A DNA stretch of 64,000 nucleotides from contig JAJDCA010000014.1 of assembly GCA_029261055.1 (NCBI GenBank), positions 5,295 to 69,294 on the forward strand. Reading direction: 5' to 3'. Both the position numbers and the translations under genes were made by a program. Below are positions 47,927-60,527 of the stretch, piece by piece. The notes below the pieces were generated by a model. It saw only the letters and a program-made list of their open reading frames with translations, was not told the DNA's origin and ran no database searches. This DNA comes from Candidatus Omnitrophota bacterium. GTDB taxonomy: Bacteria; Omnitrophota; Gorgyraeia; Zapsychrales; Zapsychraceae. Each line of letters starts with the position of its first letter. Within the stretch, counting starts at the first letter, position 1.

Positions 47927-48286
47927 ATGCTAATGCAAAGAAATGTTATTTTTCATAATCCACGCTGTAGTAAAAGCCGGCAAACACTTCATTTTTTGGA
48001 AGAAAGAAATGTTGATATCGAGGTTGTTGAATATTTGAAGACACCACCATCTAAAGAAGAGTTGCAATTTATTTGTTCTAGATTAGATAAGAGACCTATT
48101 GAATTGATGAGAGTTAAAGAAAATCTTTTTAAGGAGTTAGGTTTGTCTATTGAAGATCCACGTTCTGATGAAGAGTGGATTGATATTTTATGTAAAAATC
48201 CGGCTCTTATTGAGCGTCCGATTGTTGTTTATAATCAAAAAGTTGCTCTAGGCCGCCCGCCCGAGGATGTGTTGGAGATAATTTAG
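47927..48286 (+). CDS. ArsC/Spx/YffB-family thioredoxin-fold protein
   Basis: 119 aa with an N-terminal CSKS (CxxS) motif of the ArsC family. Atypically located between ftsI and murE. Confidence 0.6.
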   Translation: MLMQRNVIFHNPRCSKSRQTLHFLEERNVDIEVVEYLKTPPSKEELQFICSRLDKRPIELMRVKENLFKELGLSIEDPRSDEEWIDILCKNPALIERPIVVYNQKVALGRPPEDVLEII

Positions 48287-48289
48287 AGT

Positions 48290-49744
48290 ATGTATTTGGA
48301 GGCATTATTAAAGGGTATTTATCCGCATGAATTAAATGAGGCTTATCGACAGACGGATATTGCAGGCATTTATTGTGATTCACGGCGCGTTAAGACAAAT
48401 AGTCTTTTTGTGGCGACGAAAGGATCATCGTCTGATGGGGCCAATTTTATTAATCAAGCGATTGATAATGGAGCTTCTGTAGTCGTTTCGCATAAGCCAA
48501 GAGATAAATATTGTATTGAAAAAAAAGTTTGTTATCTCACCGTTGAAGATGCGTCTCAGTTTTTACGTGATGTCGCTAAACGGTTTTATGGGCAACCTTC
48601 TGAAAAAGTCTGCACAATCGGTATTACCGGAACTAATGGTAAGACCACCGTCGCTTATCTTATTGAATCTATTTTACATCAGGCCAAAAAAATATGTGGT
48701 GTTATTGGAACGGTGAATCACCGTATTGGGTCAAGAATCTTTCCATCCAAAAATACAACGCCGGGATTTCTTGATAATCAGGAGTTTTTAGCTTCTTTAG
48801 TTGAGCAAAATATCGATTATTGCGTTATGGAGGTGTCTTCGCATGCATTAGATCAGGGGCGTGTGGATGGTATTGATTTTAAACAAGCCGTATTTACAAA
48901 TTTGTCGCATGAACATTTGGATTACCATGAAAATCATGAAAATTATTTTGAAGCCAAATCTAAACTGTTTACCGGGTTGTCTTCCACGTCTGTAGCGGCT
49001 GTTAATAATGATGATCCTTACGGGCAGAGGCTTATTCCACAAATTTCTTCCGGTATTAAGACGTATGGCATTGGCCGTCCAGCTGATATTATGGCCAAAG
49101 ATATTCAATTACATATTAACGGATCCCAGTTTCAATTATGCACCCCTGACGGGAATGTGCCTGTCCATACAGCGTTGATGGGGATGTATAATATTTATAA
49201 TATTCTCGCGGCTGTAAGTGTTTGTTTGAACGAAGGGATCCCTTTAAACGAAATTAAAGAAGGGATAGAGAAATTGTCTTGTGTGCCTGGCCGTTTGGAG
49301 AGAGTGGATTGCGGGCAGGATTTCGCTATTTTTATCGATTATGCCCACACAGAAGATGCTCTTGTAAATGTTTTGCAGGCGATTAAAGATATTTCTAAAG
49401 GCAGGCTCATTTTAGTTTTTGGATGTGGTGGTGATCGAGATAAAACAAAACGACCTTTGATGGGTCGTGTGGCCGGTCAGTTAGCAGATATATCCATTGT
49501 CACCAGCGATAATCCCCGTAATGAGGATCCACAGAGTATTATTGATCAAGTAGTAGAGGGGTTTGAAGGGGATAATTACGTTTCTATTCTAGATCGCAAA
49601 GAAGCGATACGTAAAGCTCTAGGGATGGCTCTGCAAGATGATGTTGTTCTTCTGGCTGGTAAAGGACATGAGGATTATCAAATCATTCGGGGAAAGAAAG
49701 GGGCCTTTAATGAACGGCTGGTTATTGAAGAAATATTAAAGTAA
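48290..49744 (+). CDS. murE: UDP-N-acetylmuramoyl-L-alanyl-D-glutamate--2,6-diaminopimelate ligase
   Basis: GITGTNGKTT P-loop and the DNPR motif of meso-DAP-adding MurE. Confidence 0.85.
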   Translation: MYLEALLKGIYPHELNEAYRQTDIAGIYCDSRRVKTNSLFVATKGSSSDGANFINQAIDNGASVVVSHKPRDKYCIEKKVCYLTVEDASQFLRDVAKRFYGQPSEKVCTIGITGTNGKTTVAYLIESILHQAKKICGVIGTVNHRIGSRIFPSKNTTPGFLDNQEFLASLVEQNIDYCVMEVSSHALDQGRVDGIDFKQAVFTNLSHEHLDYHENHENYFEAKSKLFTGLSSTSVAAVNNDDPYGQRLIPQISSGIKTYGIGRPADIMAKDIQLHINGSQFQLCTPDGNVPVHTALMGMYNIYNILAAVSVCLNEGIPLNEIKEGIEKLSCVPGRLERVDCGQDFAIFIDYAHTEDALVNVLQAIKDISKGRLILVFGCGGDRDKTKRPLMGRVAGQLADISIVTSDNPRNEDPQSIIDQVVEGFEGDNYVSILDRKEAIRKALGMALQDDVVLLAGKGHEDYQIIRGKKGAFNERLVIEEILK

Positions 49745-49853: not shown

Positions 49854-51863
49854 ATGACGATTAATTTTAAAGAACGAGCCAATTTTATCTGGAGTATTGC
49901 TGATCTCCTGCGCGGTGATTATAAGCAGTCAGAATATGGCCGGGTGATTTTGCCTTTAACAGTTTTACGGCGGCTTGATTGCGTGCTTGATCCAACCAAA
50001 GCGAAAGTTTTAGATGCCCTTCCTAAAGTTAAGAAGTTTTCTCCAACAGCCGCAGAGGAAGTGCTGAAACGTAAAGCAAAATTGTCCTTTTATAATAAAA
50101 GTAAATTTGATTTCCAAAGGCTAGCGGCGGATCCCAATGATATTGCCGCTAATTTACGTAATTACCTGAACGGGTTTTCCAGGAATGCACGTACCATTCT
50201 GGAGCATTTTAATTTTATTGAGCATATTGAACGTTTGGATAAATCTAATCTCCTTTACAAAATTGTCAAACGCTTTGCGGAAATCGATCTTCACCCGGAT
50301 AAAGTTAAGAATATTGAAATGGGTTATATTTTTGAGGAGCTTATCAGAAAATTTGCTGAAATATCCAATGAGACAGCCGGGGAGCATTTTACACCACGGG
50401 AAGTTATTCGTCTGATGGTCAACGTTTTATTTTTAAATGACAAAGACGTTTTGACTAAAAAAGGGATTGTTAAAACCATTTATGATCCGGCCTGCGGAAC
50501 AGGCGGGATGCTTTCGACGGCAGAGGAATATTTACTTGAGTTAAACCCTGACGCAGATTTACGTGTGTTTGGTCAGGAAATTAATCCTGAAACTTATGCT
50601 GTTTGCAATTCTGATATTCTTATTAAAGGGCAGAATGCCGATCAAATTAAATTTGGCAATTCATTTACTCAAGACGGGTTAAAAGATGAAAAGTTTGACT
50701 ACATGCTAAGCAATCCTCCGTTTGGTGTCGAGTGGAAAAAGGTTGAGGCCGAAATTAGGAAAGAACATGACAAACTTGGGTTTACCGGCCGGTTCGGTGC
50801 AGGTTTGCCGCGTATTAGTGATGGTTCATTTTTGTTTTTACAGCATATGATTTCTAAAATGCGCTCTGCAAATGGCGGAGCGCGTTTAGGCATTGTTTTT
50901 AACGGTTCACCGCTTTTTTCAGGTGGTGCCGGCAGCGGCGAGAGTGAAATTCGAAGATGGATTATTGAAAACGATATGCTCGAAGCGATTATTGCTCTGC
51001 CTAATCAACTTTTTTATAACACAGGCATTGCGACGTATATTTGGATTGTGACAAATCGTAAAGAAAAAAAGCGTAAAGGAAAGATTCAATTGATCAACGC
51101 CGCGTCTTTTTTTCAGAAGATGTCGAGAAGCCTTGGCAATAAACGTAATGAAATCGGAGACAAACACATTGCAGAGATTACGCGGATTTATGGGAATTTT
51201 AAAAAAGGAGAGTTCTGCAAAATATTCGATAATAACTATTTCGGTTACACACGGGTGACCGTTGAGCGTCCGCTTAAGTTGAATTTTATGGCAATCCCAG
51301 AAAGAATCGCACGACTGGAGAATGAATCGGTATTTAAGAATTTAGCGAAATCAAAGAAAAAGGGTAATAAGGCATTAACAGAAAATGAAACAGGAGAAAA
51401 ATATCAAAAATTGATTAAAGATGCACTTGGATCCTTGAATGCCAAAAAAATATATAAAAACCGTGAGAAATTTATTGATGATTTGAAATCAGCGTTTGAG
51501 AAAAATGGGGATAATGTCAAGTCTCCGATTATCAAAATGATCATTAAAGCCCTCAGCGAGCGGGATGAAACAGCGGACGTATGTCTTGATGCCAAAGGCA
51601 ATTCCGAACCCGATTCAGAACAACGCGATTATGAAAACGTGCCTTTGCAGGATGATATTGAAAAATATTTTAAGCGGGAAGTTCTACCGCATGTTCCGGA
51701 CGCGTGGATGGATCGAAGCAAAGATAAAGTCGGATACGAAATCAATTTTACTAAGGAATTTTATAAATACAAACCTCTGCGAAGTCTTGAAGAAATTCGT
51801 AAGGATATTCTGGCTCTTGAGAAAGAGACAGAAGGGCTTTTGGAGGAAGTATTACATGGATAA
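49854..51863 (+). CDS. hsdM: Type I restriction-modification system methyltransferase subunit
   Basis: 669 aa with NPPFG (motif IV) and DPACGTGGML (motif I). Confidence 0.9.
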   Translation: MTINFKERANFIWSIADLLRGDYKQSEYGRVILPLTVLRRLDCVLDPTKAKVLDALPKVKKFSPTAAEEVLKRKAKLSFYNKSKFDFQRLAADPNDIAANLRNYLNGFSRNARTILEHFNFIEHIERLDKSNLLYKIVKRFAEIDLHPDKVKNIEMGYIFEELIRKFAEISNETAGEHFTPREVIRLMVNVLFLNDKDVLTKKGIVKTIYDPACGTGGMLSTAEEYLLELNPDADLRVFGQEINPETYAVCNSDILIKGQNADQIKFGNSFTQDGLKDEKFDYMLSNPPFGVEWKKVEAEIRKEHDKLGFTGRFGAGLPRISDGSFLFLQHMISKMRSANGGARLGIVFNGSPLFSGGAGSGESEIRRWIIENDMLEAIIALPNQLFYNTGIATYIWIVTNRKEKKRKGKIQLINAASFFQKMSRSLGNKRNEIGDKHIAEITRIYGNFKKGEFCKIFDNNYFGYTRVTVERPLKLNFMAIPERIARLENESVFKNLAKSKKKGNKALTENETGEKYQKLIKDALGSLNAKKIYKNREKFIDDLKSAFEKNGDNVKSPIIKMIIKALSERDETADVCLDAKGNSEPDSEQRDYENVPLQDDIEKYFKREVLPHVPDAWMDRSKDKVGYEINFTKEFYKYKPLRSLEEIRKDILALEKETEGLLEEVLHG

Positions 51864-52494
51864 CGGGAGCGGTAAACAACAAAATAAAAATTGGTTTGGT
51901 CAAAATTGGATAGCTTTAATTGCGCTTTTAATCTCAATTTTCTCGGTTTTTTATACCCATTTGAATTATGGCCTTCAGACTAAGTTATCTCATTTGCAGA
52001 TAAAACCAATGATAAAAACGTATTTTGATTTGCCTGTTGATAAAAATCCTATTTTTGTTGTGGCTAATGAAGGTAGTGTCCCAGCAGTATCTCTTAGCTG
52101 TGGTTATTATGTTTTCACATTTAATAAGAATCAGAAAAAAGTTGTGGTGGCAGGTAAGGCAGGACGAGTTTTTAGCCCAGGAGTGATATATAAAGAACTT
52201 TTTAACCCAACAGACTACGAATCAATGGAGTTGGTCGGAGTATCATCTGCCGAGAATACTCTTGTAATTTATCAATTTGATTTAATTTATTTTCGTAAAC
52301 AAGATATGGATGAATATTCAAGAAGGGAATATTATTTTGTAGATAATGGGCGTTTATTATCGCATTCGGAATATCGTTTGGATCCATTGTATCGTGATGT
52401 AATGTATCAGATTTCTCAGACAATTATTCCTGATTCTCAGTGGGATTCGGGTGCTTTGAGACAATATTTAGAAAATCAATCTGAATTTAAATGA
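51856..52494 (+). CDS. membrane-anchored hypothetical protein embedded between hsdM and hsdS (212 aa)
   Basis: ATG at 51856 overlaps the hsdM stop. One N-terminal transmembrane helix. No recognisable motif. Confidence 0.5.
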   Translation: MDNGSGKQQNKNWFGQNWIALIALLISIFSVFYTHLNYGLQTKLSHLQIKPMIKTYFDLPVDKNPIFVVANEGSVPAVSLSCGYYVFTFNKNQKKVVVAGKAGRVFSPGVIYKELFNPTDYESMELVGVSSAENTLVIYQFDLIYFRKQDMDEYSRREYYFVDNGRLLSHSEYRLDPLYRDVMYQISQTIIPDSQWDSGALRQYLENQSEFK

Positions 52495-52498
52495 AAGT

Positions 52499-53818
52499 AT
52501 GAATAGATATTTAGAATATAAAGATTCAGGGATAGAATGGGTTGGTAAAATTCCAAAGGATTGGGCATTGAAACGTCTCAAGTTTGTTTCTAAGATTAAT
52601 CCTTCGAGATCATTAAATATTTCAGAAAATACTCAGTGTGCCTTTATCCCAATGGCGGCGATGAATACTGATGGAAATTTTGATCAATCTGAGCGCCATC
52701 CGCTATCAAAACTCAAAAGTGGTTTTACGTATTTTGTTAAAGATGATGTTATCTTTGCAAAAATAACCCCGTGTTTTGAAAATGGTAAAGGGGCTTTGCT
52801 AGCTAATTTGGAAAGTGAAATTGGGTTTGGTTCGACAGAATTTCATGTATTACGACCTGGAAAAGGATGGACATTATCAGCATTTCTTTATTATATTACA
52901 ATATCAGGGCAATTTCGGCGAATCGGTGAAGCTTTCATGCAGGGAGTAGCTGGACAAAAGCGAGTAACAAATGATTTTGTTGAAAATTATGTTGTGGCAG
53001 TTCCTTCGGTTGATGAACAAAAAATTATTACCGATTACTTGGATTGTAAGACGGCGCAGATTGATGACTTGATCGCCAAAAAAAAACGGATGATTGAGCT
53101 GCTTAAAGAGGAGCGGATGGCTGTAATCAATCAGGCGGTGACAAAGGGGCTTGATCCAAACGTCGAGATGAAGGATTCCGGAATTGAATGGCTTGGCAAA
53201 ATTCCGAAGCATTGGAAATTAAAGAAACTTAAATATGTGGTTAGGATAAACAAAGACTCATTATCAGAAACAGTTAGAGAAAATTATGCGTTTAATTACA
53301 TTGACATTGGTAGTGTTGACTTAGAGGAAGGGTTTAATCTGGGGGAGAAAATTAATTTTGTCGATGCACCCTCAAGAGCCAGGCGGATTGTTAGCAAGGG
53401 GGATACAATCATATCCACTGTTAGGACATATTTAAAAGCAATTGCATATATCGAGAATGATGTTAGAGATATGATAGTTTCAACAGGTTTTGCAGTAGTG
53501 TGTCCTGGTAGTGAAATAGAATCGGAATTTCTTTATTATGTTTTAAGAAGTGAGAAAATTATTGATCGCATTTGTGCCATTTCTGTGGGGGTAAGTTATC
53601 CTGCGATTAATGCATCAGATTTATCAAATACAGTTATTTGGTATCCAAAAGAGAAGGAAGAGCAAAAACGAATTACTCAACAACTTGATAGGGAACTTTT
53701 AAAGTCGAAAAGGATAATTCAAAAACTGTATAGTGAAATAGAATTATTCCAAGAATACCGCACCTCACTTATTTCTGAAGTGGTGACGGGGAAGATTGAT
53801 GTTCGGGGAGGAAGTTAA
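52499..53818 (+). CDS. hsdS: Type I restriction-modification specificity subunit (two target-recognition domains)
   Basis: Duplicated architecture: GIEWVGKIPKDWALKRLKFV and GIEWLGKIPKHWKLKKLKYV start the two target-recognition domains, with the central conserved coiled region in between. Confidence 0.85.
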   Translation: MNRYLEYKDSGIEWVGKIPKDWALKRLKFVSKINPSRSLNISENTQCAFIPMAAMNTDGNFDQSERHPLSKLKSGFTYFVKDDVIFAKITPCFENGKGALLANLESEIGFGSTEFHVLRPGKGWTLSAFLYYITISGQFRRIGEAFMQGVAGQKRVTNDFVENYVVAVPSVDEQKIITDYLDCKTAQIDDLIAKKKRMIELLKEERMAVINQAVTKGLDPNVEMKDSGIEWLGKIPKHWKLKKLKYVVRINKDSLSETVRENYAFNYIDIGSVDLEEGFNLGEKINFVDAPSRARRIVSKGDTIISTVRTYLKAIAYIENDVRDMIVSTGFAVVCPGSEIESEFLYYVLRSEKIIDRICAISVGVSYPAINASDLSNTVIWYPKEKEEQKRITQQLDRELLKSKRIIQKLYSEIELFQEYRTSLISEVVTGKIDVRGGS

Positions 53819-54550
53819 ATGTTTAGCGAAAATAGATTTTATAATATTTATTGTGATGAAAGCTGTCATTTAGAGAATGATCATCAGAAAGTAATGACCC
53901 TTGGCGCACTTTGGTGTCTTAATGATGTTAAAAGGGATATGTTTTCTAAGATAAGAGAGATAAAGCGAGAACATGGCTTACCAAATCATTTTGAGATCAA
54001 ATGGACGAAGGTATCTCCTGCAAAGATAGATTTTTATATTGATATTTTAAAGACTTTTTTTGACGAATCAGATTTGCATTTTAGGGCGGTGATTATCAAA
54101 AACAAAGAGCATCTAGATCATACAAAGTTTGCAGGGCAGGATCATGACGTTTGGTACTACAAAATGTTTTTTTGTTTATTGAATGTTATTTTAGAGCCGC
54201 ATGCTTGTTATAAAATTTATCTTGATAAAAAAGACACTAGGGGTGCTGATAAAATTATCAAATTACATGATGTTTTGTGTAACCATCGATATGATTTTTC
54301 AAAAGAAATAATTCAGAATGTGCAGTCAGTTCATTCTCATGAGATAGAACTTCTTCAAGTGGCCGATCTTTTAATAGGAGCAGTTGGATATGTCAATAGA
54401 GGGATTAATACTAGCGAGGCAAAGTCTAAATTAATTTCGTACATCCGGGAACGTTCAGGGTATAGTTTATTAGCAACGACTCTTTTAAAAGAGGAAAAAA
54501 TGAATTTATTTTTTTGGGAGCCTAAGAAAGGTTTAGATAATGGCGAGTGA
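53819..54550 (+). CDS. DUF3800-family protein
   Basis: IYCDESCH near the N-terminus and LLQVADLLIGAVGY near the C-terminus match the DUF3800 pattern. Confidence 0.6.
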   Translation: MFSENRFYNIYCDESCHLENDHQKVMTLGALWCLNDVKRDMFSKIREIKREHGLPNHFEIKWTKVSPAKIDFYIDILKTFFDESDLHFRAVIIKNKEHLDHTKFAGQDHDVWYYKMFFCLLNVILEPHACYKIYLDKKDTRGADKIIKLHDVLCNHRYDFSKEIIQNVQSVHSHEIELLQVADLLIGAVGYVNRGINTSEAKSKLISYIRERSGYSLLATTLLKEEKMNLFFWEPKKGLDNGE

Positions 54551-55094
54551 AATTGATTGGCTGCCAGAGCTAGTAATTTTTGAAAGCTATGATAACAATT
54601 GGAATAAATACTTAGAAGCTTTGTATGGATTTTACAAAATTGATTTTTTGGACAATAAGCCTAAATATAAAAATAAGGATGTTGGTGTTAAAAGACTCCC
54701 TATGTATGAGGGAAAAGAATCTAATTTTTGGCATTTGATTCAAGAGAGTTACCAGACTAAGGAGGAAGAAGATCGTATTCCTGATTTGCGAAGATGTGAA
54801 AGAATACGATGGCCGAAACCAATTATCGAAAATGTAAAAAATTCAAGGGTGTTAGTTTGGGAAAATACAAGGCACAATAAGGCTGGAATTGAGAATAATG
54901 TATGTTTTTGGTTTAAAAATAAAGAATATTTAGTTGTTTTACGAAAGAGAAAAAAGTATTTCTTGCTTTGGACTGCTTATCCGGTGATAAAAGAACATAC
55001 GAAAAGAAAATTGTGGAAGGAATATGAGGCGTATAAAAAAGCTGGGGACGCCATTTCTGACGACCCCGTTACTCCTTCTACACATGGTAGATGA
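54540..55094 (+). CDS. hypothetical protein whose start overlaps the DUF3800 gene (184 aa)
   Basis: 11-nt overlap implies translational coupling. Basic and aromatic-rich, unrecognised. Confidence 0.45.
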   Translation: MASEIDWLPELVIFESYDNNWNKYLEALYGFYKIDFLDNKPKYKNKDVGVKRLPMYEGKESNFWHLIQESYQTKEEEDRIPDLRRCERIRWPKPIIENVKNSRVLVWENTRHNKAGIENNVCFWFKNKEYLVVLRKRKKYFLLWTAYPVIKEHTKRKLWKEYEAYKKAGDAISDDPVTPSTHGR

Positions 55095-55155
55095 GCTATT
55101 TAAAATATAACATACAAAATTATGAAAAACAAAGGAAAATTAGTTCAAAAAATAA

Positions 55156-55338
55156 ATGATAGAATCTAACCACAATCAAAGCGTTAAGATTGAAATAAAA
55201 ACACCTGCGGAGGAAAAGTCCTTGCAGGCTGTGGATTGTGTAAGCTGGGCCATATTCAGGAAACTGGAGTATAGGGATGATACGTATTACAATACCATCA
55301 GGGAAAAGATCATTGAAGAAAACCCTTTGTTTCCCTAA
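55156..55338 (+). pseudogene. possible C-terminal remnant of a second DUF3800-like gene
   Basis: The 60-aa ORF contains SLQAVDCVSWAIFRKLE, resembling the DUF3800 C-terminal LQ.AD....A motif. No N-terminal part is present. Confidence 0.3.
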
Positions 55339-55520
55339 GAATGATAAAGCCTCATTCGCTATTTACGAGGAACCCTGCGGAACCCCACGGATGAGGACTT
55401 ACTTATCTAGATCGACCGGGAATCCCCAGTCCTTTTTATATCTAATGTAAGTATATGCTATAGGTTGACATTTATCAACTAGAAAGCTATACCTTTTGTG
55501 TGGGTAAAAATCGAGCTAAA

Positions 55521-58500
55521 ATGAGATCAATAACCAATGAAAAAGCCTTTGAAGAATTAATTGAGCAGTGCCTTTTGAAGAGTGGCGGTTATGTAAAAGG
55601 AGATCCTGCGAAGTTCAATCGTGGATTGGCTATGGATACGGTTGTGCTTCTTCAGTTTATTCAGGCCACACAGAAAAATGTTTGGGATGAGCTTGTAAAA
55701 ATTCACGGAATAGATGCTGAACCAAAGTTTCTTTATCGACTTAATCAGGAACTTGAAACGAGAGGTATGTTAGATTGTTTGCGCAACGGAATCATTGATT
55801 ACGGTAAGAAATTTAAATTGGCCTTTTTTAAGCCAGTCAGCGGGCTTAACCCTGAAACGCAGGAATTATATGGCAAGAATGTTCTTACGGTGACAAGGCA
55901 AGTGCGTTATTCCACAAAGGATGAAAGTTCAATTGATATGCTTCTTAGCCTTAACGGTCTTCCTATGGCCACTATTGAACTTAAGAATGCTTTTACCGGA
56001 CAAAATGTTAATAATGCCAAGCAGCAATATAAATATGACAGGAATGCGCAAGAGCTTTTATTCCAATTCAAGAAGCGTGCGCTTGTCCATTTTGCGGTGG
56101 ATACGGATGAGGTTTATATGACCACCCGGCTGCAGGGAAGCAAAACACGGTATTTGCCTTTTAACCGTGGTGTCAATAAAGGGGCTGGTAATCCTATTAT
56201 TGAGGGGAAGCATAAGACCCATTATTTATGGGAGGAAGTTTTTGTTAAAGATAGTTGGATGGATATTTTGGCGAGATTTGTTCATCTTCAGATTGAAGAT
56301 TTCTTGATTGAGGGTAAAAAAGTTAAAAAGGAAAAGATGATATTCCCGCGGTACCATCAGCTGGATGTTGTAAGAAAGATTGCGAGTCATTCTTTAGCGA
56401 ATGGAGCTGGAGAAAATTATCTCATTCAGCATAGTGCCGGAAGCGGTAAAAGTAACTCTATTGCTTGGCTTTCCTATCATTTAGCCAGTCTTCATGGTAA
56501 GACGGACGAAAGAGTATTTGATTCAGTGATTGTTGTGACAGACCGGCTTGTGCTTGATCAGCAGCTTCAGGATACGATTTATCAATTTGAACATAAACGG
56601 GGCGTAGTTGAAAGAATTGATAAGGATTCTCAACAATTGGCAGATGCATTATCCGGCGGAACAAATATTATTATCACGACACTTCAGAAATTTCCGTTTG
56701 TCCTCGATAAAGTTAAAGAACTCCCTAAGCGGAATTATGCTGTTATTGTGGATGAGGCGCATAGCTCTCAGGGAGGAGAAATGGCTAGTGACCTTAAAAA
56801 AATTTTGATGCTTAGAGATGAAGAAGATGTTGAAGATGGTCTTAGGGAAATGATGCATGCTCGTGGTCCTCAATCGAATGTAAGTTATTTTGCGTTTACG
56901 GCCACACCTAAAGCAAAAACGATTGAGATGTTTGGACAAAAAGACGATGATGGTAAGCCACAACCTTTTCATCTTTATTCGATGCGGCAGGCAATTGAGG
57001 AAGGATTTATTTTAGATGTCTTGCAGAATTATATGTCCTATAAAATATTCTTTCAGTTATCCAAGAAAATTGAGGAAGACCCTGCCGTCAATAAGAAAAA
57101 AGCCGCCCAGGCGATTGCGCGATTTTTAACGCTTCATCCGCATAATCTTGCACAAAAAACAGAGATCATTATTGAACATTTTAGGCAAGTGACCATGAGA
57201 AAAATTGGAGGTAAAGCCAAGGCAATGGTGGTTACTGCTTCGCGGGAGCATGTTGTGCGTTATAAACAGGGATTTGATAGATATCTTAAGGAAAAGGGAT
57301 ATTCAGGCATTAAAGCATTAGTTGCGTTTTCTGGGAAAGTGCTATTAGATGGGATCCCACCAGAATATACAGAGGTAAAGATGAATAATTGTGGGGAAAA
57401 GGAGCTCCCTGAGAAGTTTAGCACATCTGAATATCAGTTATTGCTGGTGGCGGAAAAGTATCAAACCGGGTTTGACCAACCTTTACTGCATACAATGTAT
57501 GTCGACAAACGGCTTGATGGTGTTAAAGCTGTTCAGGCCTTGAGCCGTTTAAATAGAATGCATCCGGGAAAAGACGATACTTTTGTGCTTGATTTTGTGA
57601 ACCAGCGAGAAGATATTCTTAACGCGTTTCAACCCTATTATGAACGAACAACATTGGTCGATACAACCGACCCTAATAAATTGTACGACCTTAAAAATAA
57701 AATTGATACGTTTAAAGTCATCGACTACGGGGACGTTGATGTGTTTTCTTCTGTGTTTTTTAAAGATAAAAAATTGCACAACAAGACCGAGCACGCCCAG
57801 TTAAATGCCTTGGTCGATAAAGCTGTTGAACGCTACGAAGCGATTGAGAAAGAAGAAGACAGAGAGGATCTGGCTAATACTTGCCGAGTCTTTACTCGTT
57901 TGTATGCCTTTTTAGCACAGATTATGCCGTTTAGTGATGTTGAACTTGAGAAGTTTTACGCATACATACGATTATTTCTTAAGAAACTTCCTAAAAGAAC
58001 GAATGATGGTCGCTTTACACTCGATGATGAGGTTGCTTTGGAATATTATCGATTACAAAAAATTGCAGAGGGAAAGATTGAATTACAAAAAGGCGTAGAT
58101 GCCGGGCTTAAGCCTGTTAATGAAGCGGGGACAAAAAAAGATAAAGAAGAATATAAGCGCTTATCAGAAATTATTAAAATTATTAATGATCACTTTGGAA
58201 CCGATTTTACGGAGGCCGATAAATTATTTTTTGACCAAATTGAGGAGGAGCTTGTTTTAGATGAAAAGTTGGGACTGCAGGCTAAAAACAATACGATTGA
58301 GAATTTTAAGTATGGATTTGAGGATATTTTTGTTAGCAAGCTTGTCGATCGGATGGATCAGAACGAGGATCTTTTTAATAAGATCATGGAGGACAAAGCC
58401 TTCGCTGCTGTTGTGAAAGATTATTTGCTAAAGAAGGTGTATCAAAGATTAAATGTGCGTAGTGGGGTCGTTGAAGAAGCTGAGTCATTTTTGCGGGACT

Positions 58501-58982
58501 TGGTTTCAGATGAGGCAATAACACCTGCACAGCGTAAAACGCATGTTCGTGTTTGTTCTCTTGAAGCGATGGCGACATCGTTTCAGGAACAGCGAAGACC
58601 TGAGGTTATTGGTTGGAAAGAAATGAAGGGTGTTTTTAAGTTAAATAAAGATATGTTTATTGCTCAAGTTGTCGGCAAATCTATGGAACCGACACTTAAA
58701 GATGGCAGTTGGTGTTTATTTCGTCCGGATCAGGGGGGATCCCGAAATAATAAAATCGTTTTGGTTGAGTCGGAGTATATTACTGATTCTGAAACAATGA
58801 AGAATTATACGATTAAGCGATATTTTAGTAAAAAGACGGACGGCGAGGATGAAGACAGCTTCCGGCATACAAAAATTATATTAAAGCCGGATAATAAAGA
58901 ATTTCCGGATATTATATTACCCGAAGAAACTAGGGAAGATGAATTTCACGTTGTTGCGGAGTTTGTGAAGGTGGTGGGTTAG
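55521..58982 (+). CDS. hsdR: Type I restriction endonuclease subunit HsdR fused to a C-terminal S24 (LexA/UmuD/CI-like) peptidase domain
   Basis: SF2 helicase motifs (SAGSGKS Walker A, DEAH, FTATP). The last ~125 aa carry VVGKSMEPTLKDGSWCLF (catalytic Ser motif), YTIKRYF (catalytic Lys) and LKPDNKEFPDIIL. Confidence 0.8.
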   Translation: MRSITNEKAFEELIEQCLLKSGGYVKGDPAKFNRGLAMDTVVLLQFIQATQKNVWDELVKIHGIDAEPKFLYRLNQELETRGMLDCLRNGIIDYGKKFKLAFFKPVSGLNPETQELYGKNVLTVTRQVRYSTKDESSIDMLLSLNGLPMATIELKNAFTGQNVNNAKQQYKYDRNAQELLFQFKKRALVHFAVDTDEVYMTTRLQGSKTRYLPFNRGVNKGAGNPIIEGKHKTHYLWEEVFVKDSWMDILARFVHLQIEDFLIEGKKVKKEKMIFPRYHQLDVVRKIASHSLANGAGENYLIQHSAGSGKSNSIAWLSYHLASLHGKTDERVFDSVIVVTDRLVLDQQLQDTIYQFEHKRGVVERIDKDSQQLADALSGGTNIIITTLQKFPFVLDKVKELPKRNYAVIVDEAHSSQGGEMASDLKKILMLRDEEDVEDGLREMMHARGPQSNVSYFAFTATPKAKTIEMFGQKDDDGKPQPFHLYSMRQAIEEGFILDVLQNYMSYKIFFQLSKKIEEDPAVNKKKAAQAIARFLTLHPHNLAQKTEIIIEHFRQVTMRKIGGKAKAMVVTASREHVVRYKQGFDRYLKEKGYSGIKALVAFSGKVLLDGIPPEYTEVKMNNCGEKELPEKFSTSEYQLLLVAEKYQTGFDQPLLHTMYVDKRLDGVKAVQALSRLNRMHPGKDDTFVLDFVNQREDILNAFQPYYERTTLVDTTDPNKLYDLKNKIDTFKVIDYGDVDVFSSVFFKDKKLHNKTEHAQLNALVDKAVERYEAIEKEEDREDLANTCRVFTRLYAFLAQIMPFSDVELEKFYAYIRLFLKKLPKRTNDGRFTLDDEVALEYYRLQKIAEGKIELQKGVDAGLKPVNEAGTKKDKEEYKRLSEIIKIINDHFGTDFTEADKLFFDQIEEELVLDEKLGLQAKNNTIENFKYGFEDIFVSKLVDRMDQNEDLFNKIMEDKAFAAVVKDYLLKKVYQRLNVRSGVVEEAESFLRDLVSDEAITPAQRKTHVRVCSLEAMATSFQEQRRPEVIGWKEMKGVFKLNKDMFIAQVVGKSMEPTLKDGSWCLFRPDQGGSRNNKIVLVESEYITDSETMKNYTIKRYFSKKTDGEDEDSFRHTKIILKPDNKEFPDIILPEETREDEFHVVAEFVKVVG

Positions 58983-59159: not shown

Positions 59160-60527
59160 ATGATACACGCACACATTAATGACATTGTAAAATGCACTAA
59201 AGGGAAGCTTGTTAAGGGGAATGAGGAGGTCCAGGTTAGAGGTGTATCCATTGATTCGCGGACTGTAAAGAAGGGGAACCTTTTTATTGCGATCAAAGGA
59301 GTGAACTTTGACGGTCATCGGTTTGTTGCGCAAGCGATTAAAAAAGGGGCGGCGGCGATTATTGTTTCAAAGCGAAAGGTCGTGCCTTGTGACGTTCCCA
59401 CTATTTTGGTCAATGATACAACGCAAGCTTTGGGTGAAGTGGCGCGATTTCATCGGTGTCGGTTTTCGATTCCGCTTATTGCTATTACCGGGAGTACTGG
59501 TAAAACCACCACAAAGGATATGATTGCGGCGGTCCTTAAAGTTAAGTTTAAAGTATTAAAGAATATCAAAACAGAAAATAATCAGTTCGGGGTTCCGTTA
59601 ACGCTTCTGAAGCTGAATGCCTCTTATGATGTGGTTGTGTTGGAATTAGGGACGAACCAGCCGGGCGATATTCCGTGGCTTGCCTATGTTGCCCAGCCCA
59701 CCGTGGCTGTTTTTACAAATATCGGGGAATCACATCTTCAAGGGCTCAAGACGCCGCAGGGGGTGTTTCGTGAGAAATATCAGTTAATTAAGCATACGGC
59801 TGAAGATGGTACGGTAATTTTTAATGGCGATGACATTTATTTAAAAACTATTACAAATAAAAAATTATCGCAGACAAAAATAACGTTTAGTATTCAAGAA
59901 AAATCTGATTACCAGGCTATGAAAATCAAAAAGAGCGGTAATTATAAGTTATGTTTTCAAACGTACCGGAATATTTTTTCTATAGTCAGTCCGGCTGAGC
60001 ATAATATTTATAATGCATTAGCCGCAATGTGTTGTGGCCGGTTCTTTAAAATTAGTTTTGATGATATTAAGGGTAGGATTTCTAGATTTAAGGGGGCTGA
60101 TGGGCGTCAAATTGTTAAAAAGTGTAAGAATTTTTGGTTGATTGATGATACGTACAATTCTAATCCTGTATCTTTTAAAAGTGCTTTAAAGACCTTGAGT
60201 TCTTTTGAAACAAAAGGAAGGAAAATTTTAGTGTTTGGAGATATGATGGAATTAGGTTCGCAAGCGCAGGATTTACATCAGCGGATGGGAAAATTGATTA
60301 GACAGTCAAGCATTGATGCTATTTTTACATTTGGTCAATATTCTGATCAGATAACTAAAGAAATTACAAAAAATTCAAAGGCTATGCAAGCAAGGCATTG
60401 TAAGACTCAAAACAAATTGCAGCAGCATTTACAGCATTTTTGTCAAAAGGGTGATGTTATCCTTATTAAAGGTTCCCGCAGCATGAAAATGGAAAGGGTT
60501 GTTGATTTTTTATGTTCTATTACTTAG
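59160..60527 (+). CDS. murF: UDP-N-acetylmuramoyl-tripeptide--D-alanyl-D-alanine ligase
   Basis: ITGSTGKTTTK P-loop and Mur ligase domain order. Confidence 0.85.
   Translation: MIHAHINDIVKCTKGKLVKGNEEVQVRGVSIDSRTVKKGNLFIAIKGVNFDGHRFVAQAIKKGAAAIIVSKRKVVPCDVPTILVNDTTQALGEVARFHRCRFSIPLIAITGSTGKTTTKDMIAAVLKVKFKVLKNIKTENNQFGVPLTLLKLNASYDVVVLELGTNQPGDIPWLAYVAQPTVAVFTNIGESHLQGLKTPQGVFREKYQLIKHTAEDGTVIFNGDDIYLKTITNKKLSQTKITFSIQEKSDYQAMKIKKSGNYKLCFQTYRNIFSIVSPAEHNIYNALAAMCCGRFFKISFDDIKGRISRFKGADGRQIVKKCKNFWLIDDTYNSNPVSFKSALKTLSSFETKGRKILVFGDMMELGSQAQDLHQRMGKLIRQSSIDAIFTFGQYSDQITKEITKNSKAMQARHCKTQNKLQQHLQHFCQKGDVILIKGSRSMKMERVVDFLCSIT

Follow-up and report, generated by a model that had tools for sequence, protein, structure and literature searches.

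The mechanism by which unmodified host DNA is protected from the cell's own restriction after damage is understood for few model systems, among them EcoKI, where it operates via ClpXP. Restriction alleviation in EcoKI is the proteolysis of HsdR by ClpXP (PMC11109961), and the control is wholly in trans, with ClpXP recognising the translocating HsdR and the EcoKI HsdR itself having no peptidase domain. In EcoR124I, a Type IC enzyme, alleviation-like behaviour has been attributed to the stability of the complex and not to proteolysis (PMC11109961). The window examined here, the whole stretch of 64,000 nucleotides (64 kb) from a Candidatus Omnitrophota bacterium (contig JAJDCA010000014.1, positions 5,295 to 69,294), contains a Type I restriction-modification (R-M) system in which the product of the hsdR gene, termed hsdR-S24 (Table 1), is an R subunit fused in frame to an S24 peptidase domain bearing both predicted catalytic residues. 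HsdR-S24 would bring together two phenomena that are each known already, the autoproteolytic switches of the S24 family and the alleviation of restriction. The outcome proposed for it would resemble that in EcoKI and EcoAI (Types IA and IB), where HsdR is removed by proteolysis and unmodified host DNA is spared after damage or recombination (PMC11109961), but the first proteolytic step would be built in, with a follow-up by ClpXP being hypothesised.

The R subunit of EcoR124I (PDB 2W00, 7BTO) matches HsdR-S24 in domain order, running from the nuclease through a pair of RecA-like motor domains to a C-terminal helical region, but it stops after the helical domain and lacks an S24 module. With LexA, lambda CI and UmuD (MEROPS S24, clan SF) the module shares the same beta-fold, a Ser-Lys dyad in G-x-S-M and T-[IV]-K-R motifs, and a cleavage-site strand located approximately 35 residues upstream of the Ser, at which Ala-Gly or Cys-Gly is found in the module's wider clade. 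It is unlike these proteins in that its N-terminal partner is a nuclease/motor of approximately 1000 aa and not a helix-turn-helix (HTH) domain, in the Thr at P1' in the subclade of the query, in a spacing from the conserved Pro to the scissile bond that is longer by one residue, and in a GW motif particular to its clade together with an 'LFFSDVI' helix further upstream. The closest classical relative found was P0210, a repressor of HTH_3-S24 type that is 38% identical to the query module in a 61-sequence alignment (A1) and 43% identical in the best BLASTP segment. The ImmA/ImmR-type pairs also couple DNA damage by proteolysis to the control of mobile elements or defence, a logic like that proposed for HsdR-S24. 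In these pairs a transcription factor is the target of a separate metalloprotease, whereas in HsdR-S24 a serine autopeptidase is fused to the effector enzyme and control would be post-translational and in cis.

The S24 domain of HsdR and its predicted cleavage site

A LexA-type autopeptidase domain at the end of a 1150-aa HsdR had been proposed from the DNA sequence (the original prediction). The size was near enough, as translation of the window gave an uninterrupted frame of 1160 codons from a GTG, while an identical database protein (P0001) has 1153 aa and starts at ATG 55521, which is probably the translation start of hsdR-S24. Residues are numbered here according to the 1160-aa version, and numbers in P0001 are lower by 7. 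The domain was found in frame at the C-terminus as proposed, with a Peptidase_S24 (PF00717) match on the whole protein above the Pfam gathering cutoff of 23.3 (33.9 bits, E 2.8e-8) and 39.3 bits (E 6e-10) when the C-terminal 177 aa were searched by themselves. The NCBIfam equivalog models for lexA and umuD scored far under their cutoffs on HsdR-S24, so the module is orthologous to neither LexA nor UmuD. By hhalign the module profile matched a manually entered E. coli LexA sequence with a probability of 89% and an E of 2.3e-6, and the match (LexA 74-199) spans the cleavage-site region and the core.

The proposed fold was likewise borne out by an AlphaFold2 model of aa 984-1160, which was confident (mean predicted local distance difference test, pLDDT, 89.9; predicted template modelling score 0.85) and of LexA type. 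The best 39 Foldseek matches of this model in the PDB were all C-domains of LexA, lambda CI or UmuD (best E 7e-6, probability 1.0). The tail of HsdR is almost certainly a bona fide S24 domain. Its C-terminal location stands as first described, although the true start of the module is at about aa 986 (58455) and not at 58600; unfused HsdR relatives of approximately 1000 aa stop at ...KKVYKRLNE, which corresponds to query aa ~985, approximately 175 aa earlier than the fused protein.

The Ser in GKSMEP, the Lys in TIKRY and the LKPDNKEFPDII block, which pairs with LexA LLPENSEFKPIVV in HMMER alignments, were all present as predicted. Ser1061 and Lys1106 were invariant in 46 fused HsdRs, in A1, in 76 members of the wider clade (A2) and in 40 open reading frames (ORFs) sampled from genomes (A3), with no exception in any alignment; mean column identity was 30% in A1, 8% in A2 and 18% in A3. 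Mean identity to the query was 56% for the module versus 76% for the HsdR body, indicating that the module diverges faster. The dyad has been kept in spite of this divergence, which argues that catalysis is under selection, and we infer from the alignments that the S24 module is catalytically competent.

The body that precedes the module was identified as HsdR from several lines of evidence. Pfam domains on the whole protein made up a complete Type I R-subunit arrangement, namely HSDR_N (aa 125-214), SWI2_SNF2/ResIII/DEAD (283-510) and a T1R_D3-like region (635-693), and the translation includes a PD..ELK nuclease motif, a GSGKS Walker A motif and a DEAH box. The product matched the PADLOC REase_I model (1.9e-39), its nearest solved structure was EcoR124I HsdR (PDB 2W00, E 2e-15), and relatives are annotated at source as type I restriction enzyme R subunits. 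The TIGR00348 hsdR model scored 195.7 bits, which is under its cutoff of 284.55, and by sequence the body is a divergent HsdR lineage. Close unfused HsdRs were 64-77% identical to the query in an alignment of the body.

The original prediction had also called the domain intact and expected an Ala-Gly or Cys-Gly cleavage site in the linker. A cleavage-site strand was found upstream of the core and also of position 58600, at which the original prediction had begun the domain; its counterparts are LPLVGRVAA-GEP in LexA and YPVFSHVQA-GMF in lambda CI (the hyphen marking the bond), and it is strongly conserved as LPVYSLQAVATSF in the 46 fused HsdRs and aligns with the ..AAAG.F and ..AACG.F of the wider clade. 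Location of the scissile bond by hhalign and residue counting was ambiguous by one residue, with hhalign placing it one residue earlier. Ala1025-Thr1026 was selected because the fused HsdR P0045 and the repressor P0210, which is of the same clade, have AAAG-x-F in those exact columns, and the canonical AAAG or AACG of wider-clade members falls at the same place. Ala-Gly is the bond cut in LexA and CI and Cys-Gly the bond cut in UmuD. These two pairs accounted for 45 and 16 of the 76 sequences in A2, respectively, with four having Ala-Thr and one Ala-Ser, and the P, A, G and F of P-x6-A-x-G-x-F were each at least 90% conserved. Ala-Thr was present in 45 of the 46 fused HsdR relatives, the Thr being nearly fixed, and in 20 of the 40 ORFs in A3, where a further six had Ala-Ser. 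The domain has the sequence, the catalytic residues, the fold and the cleavage-site strand of the S24 family, and departs from it in the query subclade by an Ala-Thr pair in place of the canonical dipeptide. In the model the pLDDT falls to 72 directly after the scissile position, which is consistent with a mobile cleavage loop.

The Thr at P1' has a bearing on whether the module is cut at all. Substitutions of LexA Gly85 such as G85D block cleavage, and the non-cleavable G85D protein (PDB 1JHF) was among the Foldseek matches; with Thr at P1' the module could by this precedent be slow-cleaving or non-cleaving in cis. The module in the Thr subclade might then act by dimerisation, by binding RecA filaments or as a protease in trans, for instance in tethering two R subunits or keeping the nuclease off repair intermediates. 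Replacement of Ala-Gly by Ala-Thr or Ala-Ser in the query subclade would be in keeping with such a role, and characterised S24 C-domains do dimerise. However, Ser and Lys are retained throughout the Thr/Ser subclade at approximately 56% module identity, an invariance unexpected if catalysis had been lost, and few stretches of the module are as well conserved as the cleavage-site strand. The query site moreover reads Ala-Met-Ala before the Thr, an S26-like Ala-x-Ala pattern, and cleavage behind this pattern by the related S26 signal peptidases tolerates a wide variety of P1' residues. We regard a non-cleaving role as unlikely, and HsdR-S24 probably cleaves itself, as judged from these conserved residues. 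The strand conservation and the near-fixation of Thr point to a selected substrate variant rather than decay; if cut, the Ala-Thr and Ala-Ser bonds would extend the known autocleavage specificity of the S24 family.

A further motif was observed at the start of the module (58455-58544, aa 986-1015). The near clade has a helix with the consensus D/S-LFFSDVI-xD, which reads ESFLRDLVSD in the query, is modelled with pLDDT >90 and is common to different fusion partners, but is not conserved in the wider Ala-Gly clade. This helix could pack against the S24 core or be an adaptor-binding site.

Distribution of the module among restriction and defence enzymes

A search of 1.84 billion representative proteins with the module profile returned 2355 matches at E<=1e-3, of which 513 were at E<=1e-30. 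The module was nearly always at the extreme C-terminus in the best 150 of the 2355 matches, which ranged from 121 to 1878 aa. Other HsdR-S24 fusions, which the original prediction had suggested looking for, were found in approximately 49 HsdR clusters (90% identity, different assemblies), and a scan of species-representative genomes gave at least 551 loci/genomes encoding the module. In 80 loci that were fetched the module match ended 0-12 codons before the stop in long ORFs. Among the matches listed, Omnitrophota dominate and Planctomycetota, Bacillota, Nitrospirota, Acidobacteriota, Elusimicrobia, Chloroflexi and one archaeal metagenome-assembled genome (MAG) are also represented; the nearest relatives of the query were from Omnitrophota MAGs. 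A search of the 64-kb window gave no second copy of the module, which says little for a stretch of that size.

These numbers bear on whether the fusion arose as an artefact, in which a frameshift, a lost stop or a mis-assembly had joined hsdR to a separate S24 or repressor gene. Some database entries are indeed short stand-alone S24 ORFs, but the frame of 1160 codons is continuous, the same architecture recurs in the independent clusters and species-representative genomes described above, and the module lies at the C-terminus of long ORFs in the loci fetched. This explanation is effectively ruled out on these grounds, its probability being negligible.

Stand-alone S24 genes were also considered as the ancestral or normal state of the module and rejected, since neither of the two short ORFs examined is an independent gene. 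One (P0157) is the final piece of a fragmented HsdR, and the other (P0125) is preceded by a 3.3-kb stretch without a called gene that is probably a degraded HsdR.

A census of fusion partners covered 116 proteins, consisting of 76 representatives and 40 genome ORFs, as compared with 2355 matches in the profile search. Pfam partners in the 76 matches of at least 300 aa included ResIII (16), SLFN-g3/DUF2075 helicase (13), Type_ISP_C (11) and Eco57I methylase (5), together with MZB, AlwI, LlaJI, MmeI_Mtase, HNH_4, nSTAND3, PLDc_2, HIT, Methylase_S and RE_endonuc, interpreted here as the endonuclease domain of Type III Res. The 40 genome ORFs encoded HsdR of two families, DUF2075 helicases, Type ISP and Type III Res enzymes and a DUF559/helicase protein. 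Short database entries added DpnI_C and T1RH-like_C (DUF3387, the second HsdR family), and a TnsA-like match that was below the Pfam cutoff. Public annotations of the S24-tailed proteins read 'DEAD/DEAH box helicase family protein' or 'type I restriction enzyme R subunit'.

Trees of the module and of the HsdR body were both simple neighbour-joining trees on p-distances and are crude. The P1' type (Gly, Ser or Thr) tracked module lineage in the module tree while partner classes were interleaved, and fused and unfused HsdRs interleaved in the body tree with at least nine parsimony changes. Interleaving on both trees implies repeated gain, loss or exchange of an autonomous unit, and by these sequence comparisons the S24 module behaves as a portable cassette shuffled among restriction and defence enzymes, at whose C-termini it is attached. 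Full-text literature searches brought up coincidental hits such as 'Table S24' and no account of an S24 domain joined to an enzyme of either sort, although most subscription journals were outside their coverage and a prior mention is possible. The suggestion of a new architecture for Type I systems holds as far as this literature is concerned, but the architecture recurs in other genes and in enzymes other than Type I, and the idea is accordingly wider than originally put forward.

Several genomes had two module copies, and single MAGs had two different S24-tagged enzymes (loci L013/L015, L017/L020, L005/L024 and L054/L060). A single signal in the cell might thus act on several nucleases together.

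Self-cleavage as a possible switch

The S24 tail suggests an undescribed built-in switch that ties nucleases to a DNA-damage signal. In the sequence of events proposed for HsdR-S24, a signal would drive the strand that holds the cleavage site into the active site of Ser1061 and Lys1106, and the polypeptide would be cut between Ala1025 and Thr1026, freeing the S24 core and leaving HsdR with a tail of approximately 40 residues that ends ...LEAMA-COOH. All characterised S24 autopeptidases point, by analogy, to the filament that RecA forms on single-stranded DNA, whether upon DNA damage or in the course of recombination, as the most likely signal. Predicted post-cleavage C-termini elsewhere in the family include LKAAA, LQAVA and LEAAA, with a consensus of ...L-x-A-[AV]-A. 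The nuclease might then be inactivated through the exposed Ala-rich end acting as a LexA/ssrA-like C-terminal degradation signal or, alternatively, because dimerisation through the S24 domain would be lost, as it is in LexA and CI. The outcome would be restriction alleviation in cis when repair or recombination creates unmodified host sites, in essence the first of the two roles suggested in the original prediction. Because the attachment is generic, with the module following target-recognition domains, helical HsdR ends and DpnI_C, a partner-independent consequence seems likelier than a specific allosteric contact.

Autocleavage of LexA and CI unmasks latent ClpX recognition signals on the N-terminal fragment, as stated in a passage of PMC10584840 that cites Neher et al. 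2003. The pocket of LexA that receives RecA F203 has six residues (bioRxiv 10.1101/2023.10.30.564768), and the module positions aligned with four of the six are still hydrophobic (F111 with F, L113 with A, V146 with L and V153 with Y/F). These residues are compatible with RecA binding and are not diagnostic of it.

The full chain from signal-triggered self-cleavage through loss of nuclease activity to restriction alleviation is drawn by analogy, and we give it nearly, but not quite, even credence. The Thr at P1' and the LexA G85D precedent described above weigh against it, as do three further points. The dependence on RecA is argued from family analogy and the degradation signal from the resemblance of the Ala-rich tail, while the substrate pockets of S24 and S26 enzymes require small P1 and P3 residues anyway. 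The nSTAND3, PLD, HNH and HIT partners are effectors that might need turning on and not off. Genes for recA, lexA and clpX were not seen within the 64-kb window, which is uninformative either way.

Self-cleavage might instead serve activation, with the uncleaved module keeping the nuclease or motor inactive or preventing its assembly with the M2S methylase core, and its removal yielding a working enzyme. RecA filaments, another phage-replication signal or a one-off maturation step would then be the trigger, and the cassette would be a sensor of infection or DNA damage for immune effectors. Such a role would suit the sensor-effector-type partners, namely nSTAND3, PLDc_2, HNH_4, HIT and the SLFN/DUF2075 helicases, and among S24 proteins UmuD is one whose cleavage makes it active. 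The module also follows the C-terminal region of HsdR, which in EcoR124I-type enzymes contacts the methylase. R-M enzymes, however, already tell self from non-self through methylation, close unfused HsdRs with body identities of up to 77% work without the module, and a common autoinhibitory contact is hard to picture across preceding domains as different as Type ISP and IIG target-recognition domains, helical HsdR ends and DpnI_C. It is improbable that activation is the function of the module, and switching the nuclease off remains the reading we prefer.

A broader proposal is that one cassette provides a general post-translational input of DNA damage or RecA* in cis on Type I, ISP, III, IIG and IIM enzymes and DUF2075 helicases, whether to switch them off or on. 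This proposal is more doubtful than the chain set out for HsdR-S24. If true, the immunity nucleases of many phyla have in common a circuit of self-protection that had gone unrecognised. Fusion of a nuclease to a LexA-type module that cleaves itself would be a cis-acting, post-translational solution to self-restriction and, with so many enzyme classes bearing the cassette across at least 551 species-representative genomes, a general design principle. The module could also provide a portable DNA-damage-responsive tag for degradation or inactivation in engineering.

The Type I operon and its setting

Coordinates of hsdR-S24, its parts and the companion Type I genes are collected in Table 1. The hsdM and hsdS genes are on the same strand as hsdR-S24 and closely upstream. 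A 212-aa ORF (51856-52494) lies between hsdM and hsdS and overlaps the end of hsdM, and a 60-aa ORF (55156-55338) is located directly upstream of hsdR; neither had a family match.

Table 1 Features of the hsdR-S24 gene and the Type I operon (positions in the window)
Feature	Position	Strand	Detail
hsdM, 669 aa	49854..51863	+	Pfam HsdM_N 7e-29, N6_Mtase 2e-63
hsdS, 439 aa	52499..53818	+	Pfam Methylase_S, two stretches
hsdR-S24 fusion gene	55500..58982	+	1160 codons from GTG 55500; stop codon 58980-58982
HsdR body, aa 1-985	55500..58454	+	nuclease, superfamily 2 (SF2) motor, helical C-region
Portable S24 module, aa 986-1160	58455..58979	+	helix/linker, cleavage-site strand and catalytic core; ~175 aa
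Cleavage-site strand VRVCSLEAMATSF, aa 1016-1028	58545..58583	+	homologous to LexA LPLVGRVAAGEP and lambda CI YPVFSHVQAGMF
Predicted scissile pair Ala1025-Thr1026 (GCG ACA)	58572..58577	+	from within-clade alignment
Pfam Peptidase_S24 match, aa 1043-1155	58626..58964	+	profile 26-115 of 116
Ser1061 codon TCT (1054 in P0001)	58680..58682	+	predicted nucleophile in GKSMEP; aligned to LexA S119
Lys1106 codon AAG (1099 in P0001)	58815..58817	+	predicted general base in TIKRY; aligned to LexA K156

Between hsdS and hsdR are a DUF3800 gene (53819-54550; PADLOC PDC-M04A, 2e-91) and, beside it, a partner gene of 184 aa (54540-55094; PADLOC PDC-M04B, 9e-60). Lying inside the R-M system, these two genes make up a candidate defence pair.

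The R-M/PDC-M04 island of approximately 9 kb (49854-58982) sits between murE and murF (flanks 48290-49744 and 59160-60527) of the division and cell wall (dcw) cluster. The order of the cluster is mraZ-rsmH-ftsL-PBP (penicillin-binding protein)-...-murE, the island, and murF-mraY-murD-ftsW, and is otherwise standard. The dcw cluster is an unusual site for a defence island. A second dcw insertion was located on the same contig in a region starting just beyond the window (L001, 18555-20229), where a 264-aa ORF and an AbiEii (PF08843) toxin-type gene lie between ftsW and murG. The same cluster also includes a Peptidase_MA_2 gene between murG and the next Mur ligase (L001) and, within the window, an ArsC-family (PF03960) gene (47927-48286) between the ftsI-like PBP gene and murE.

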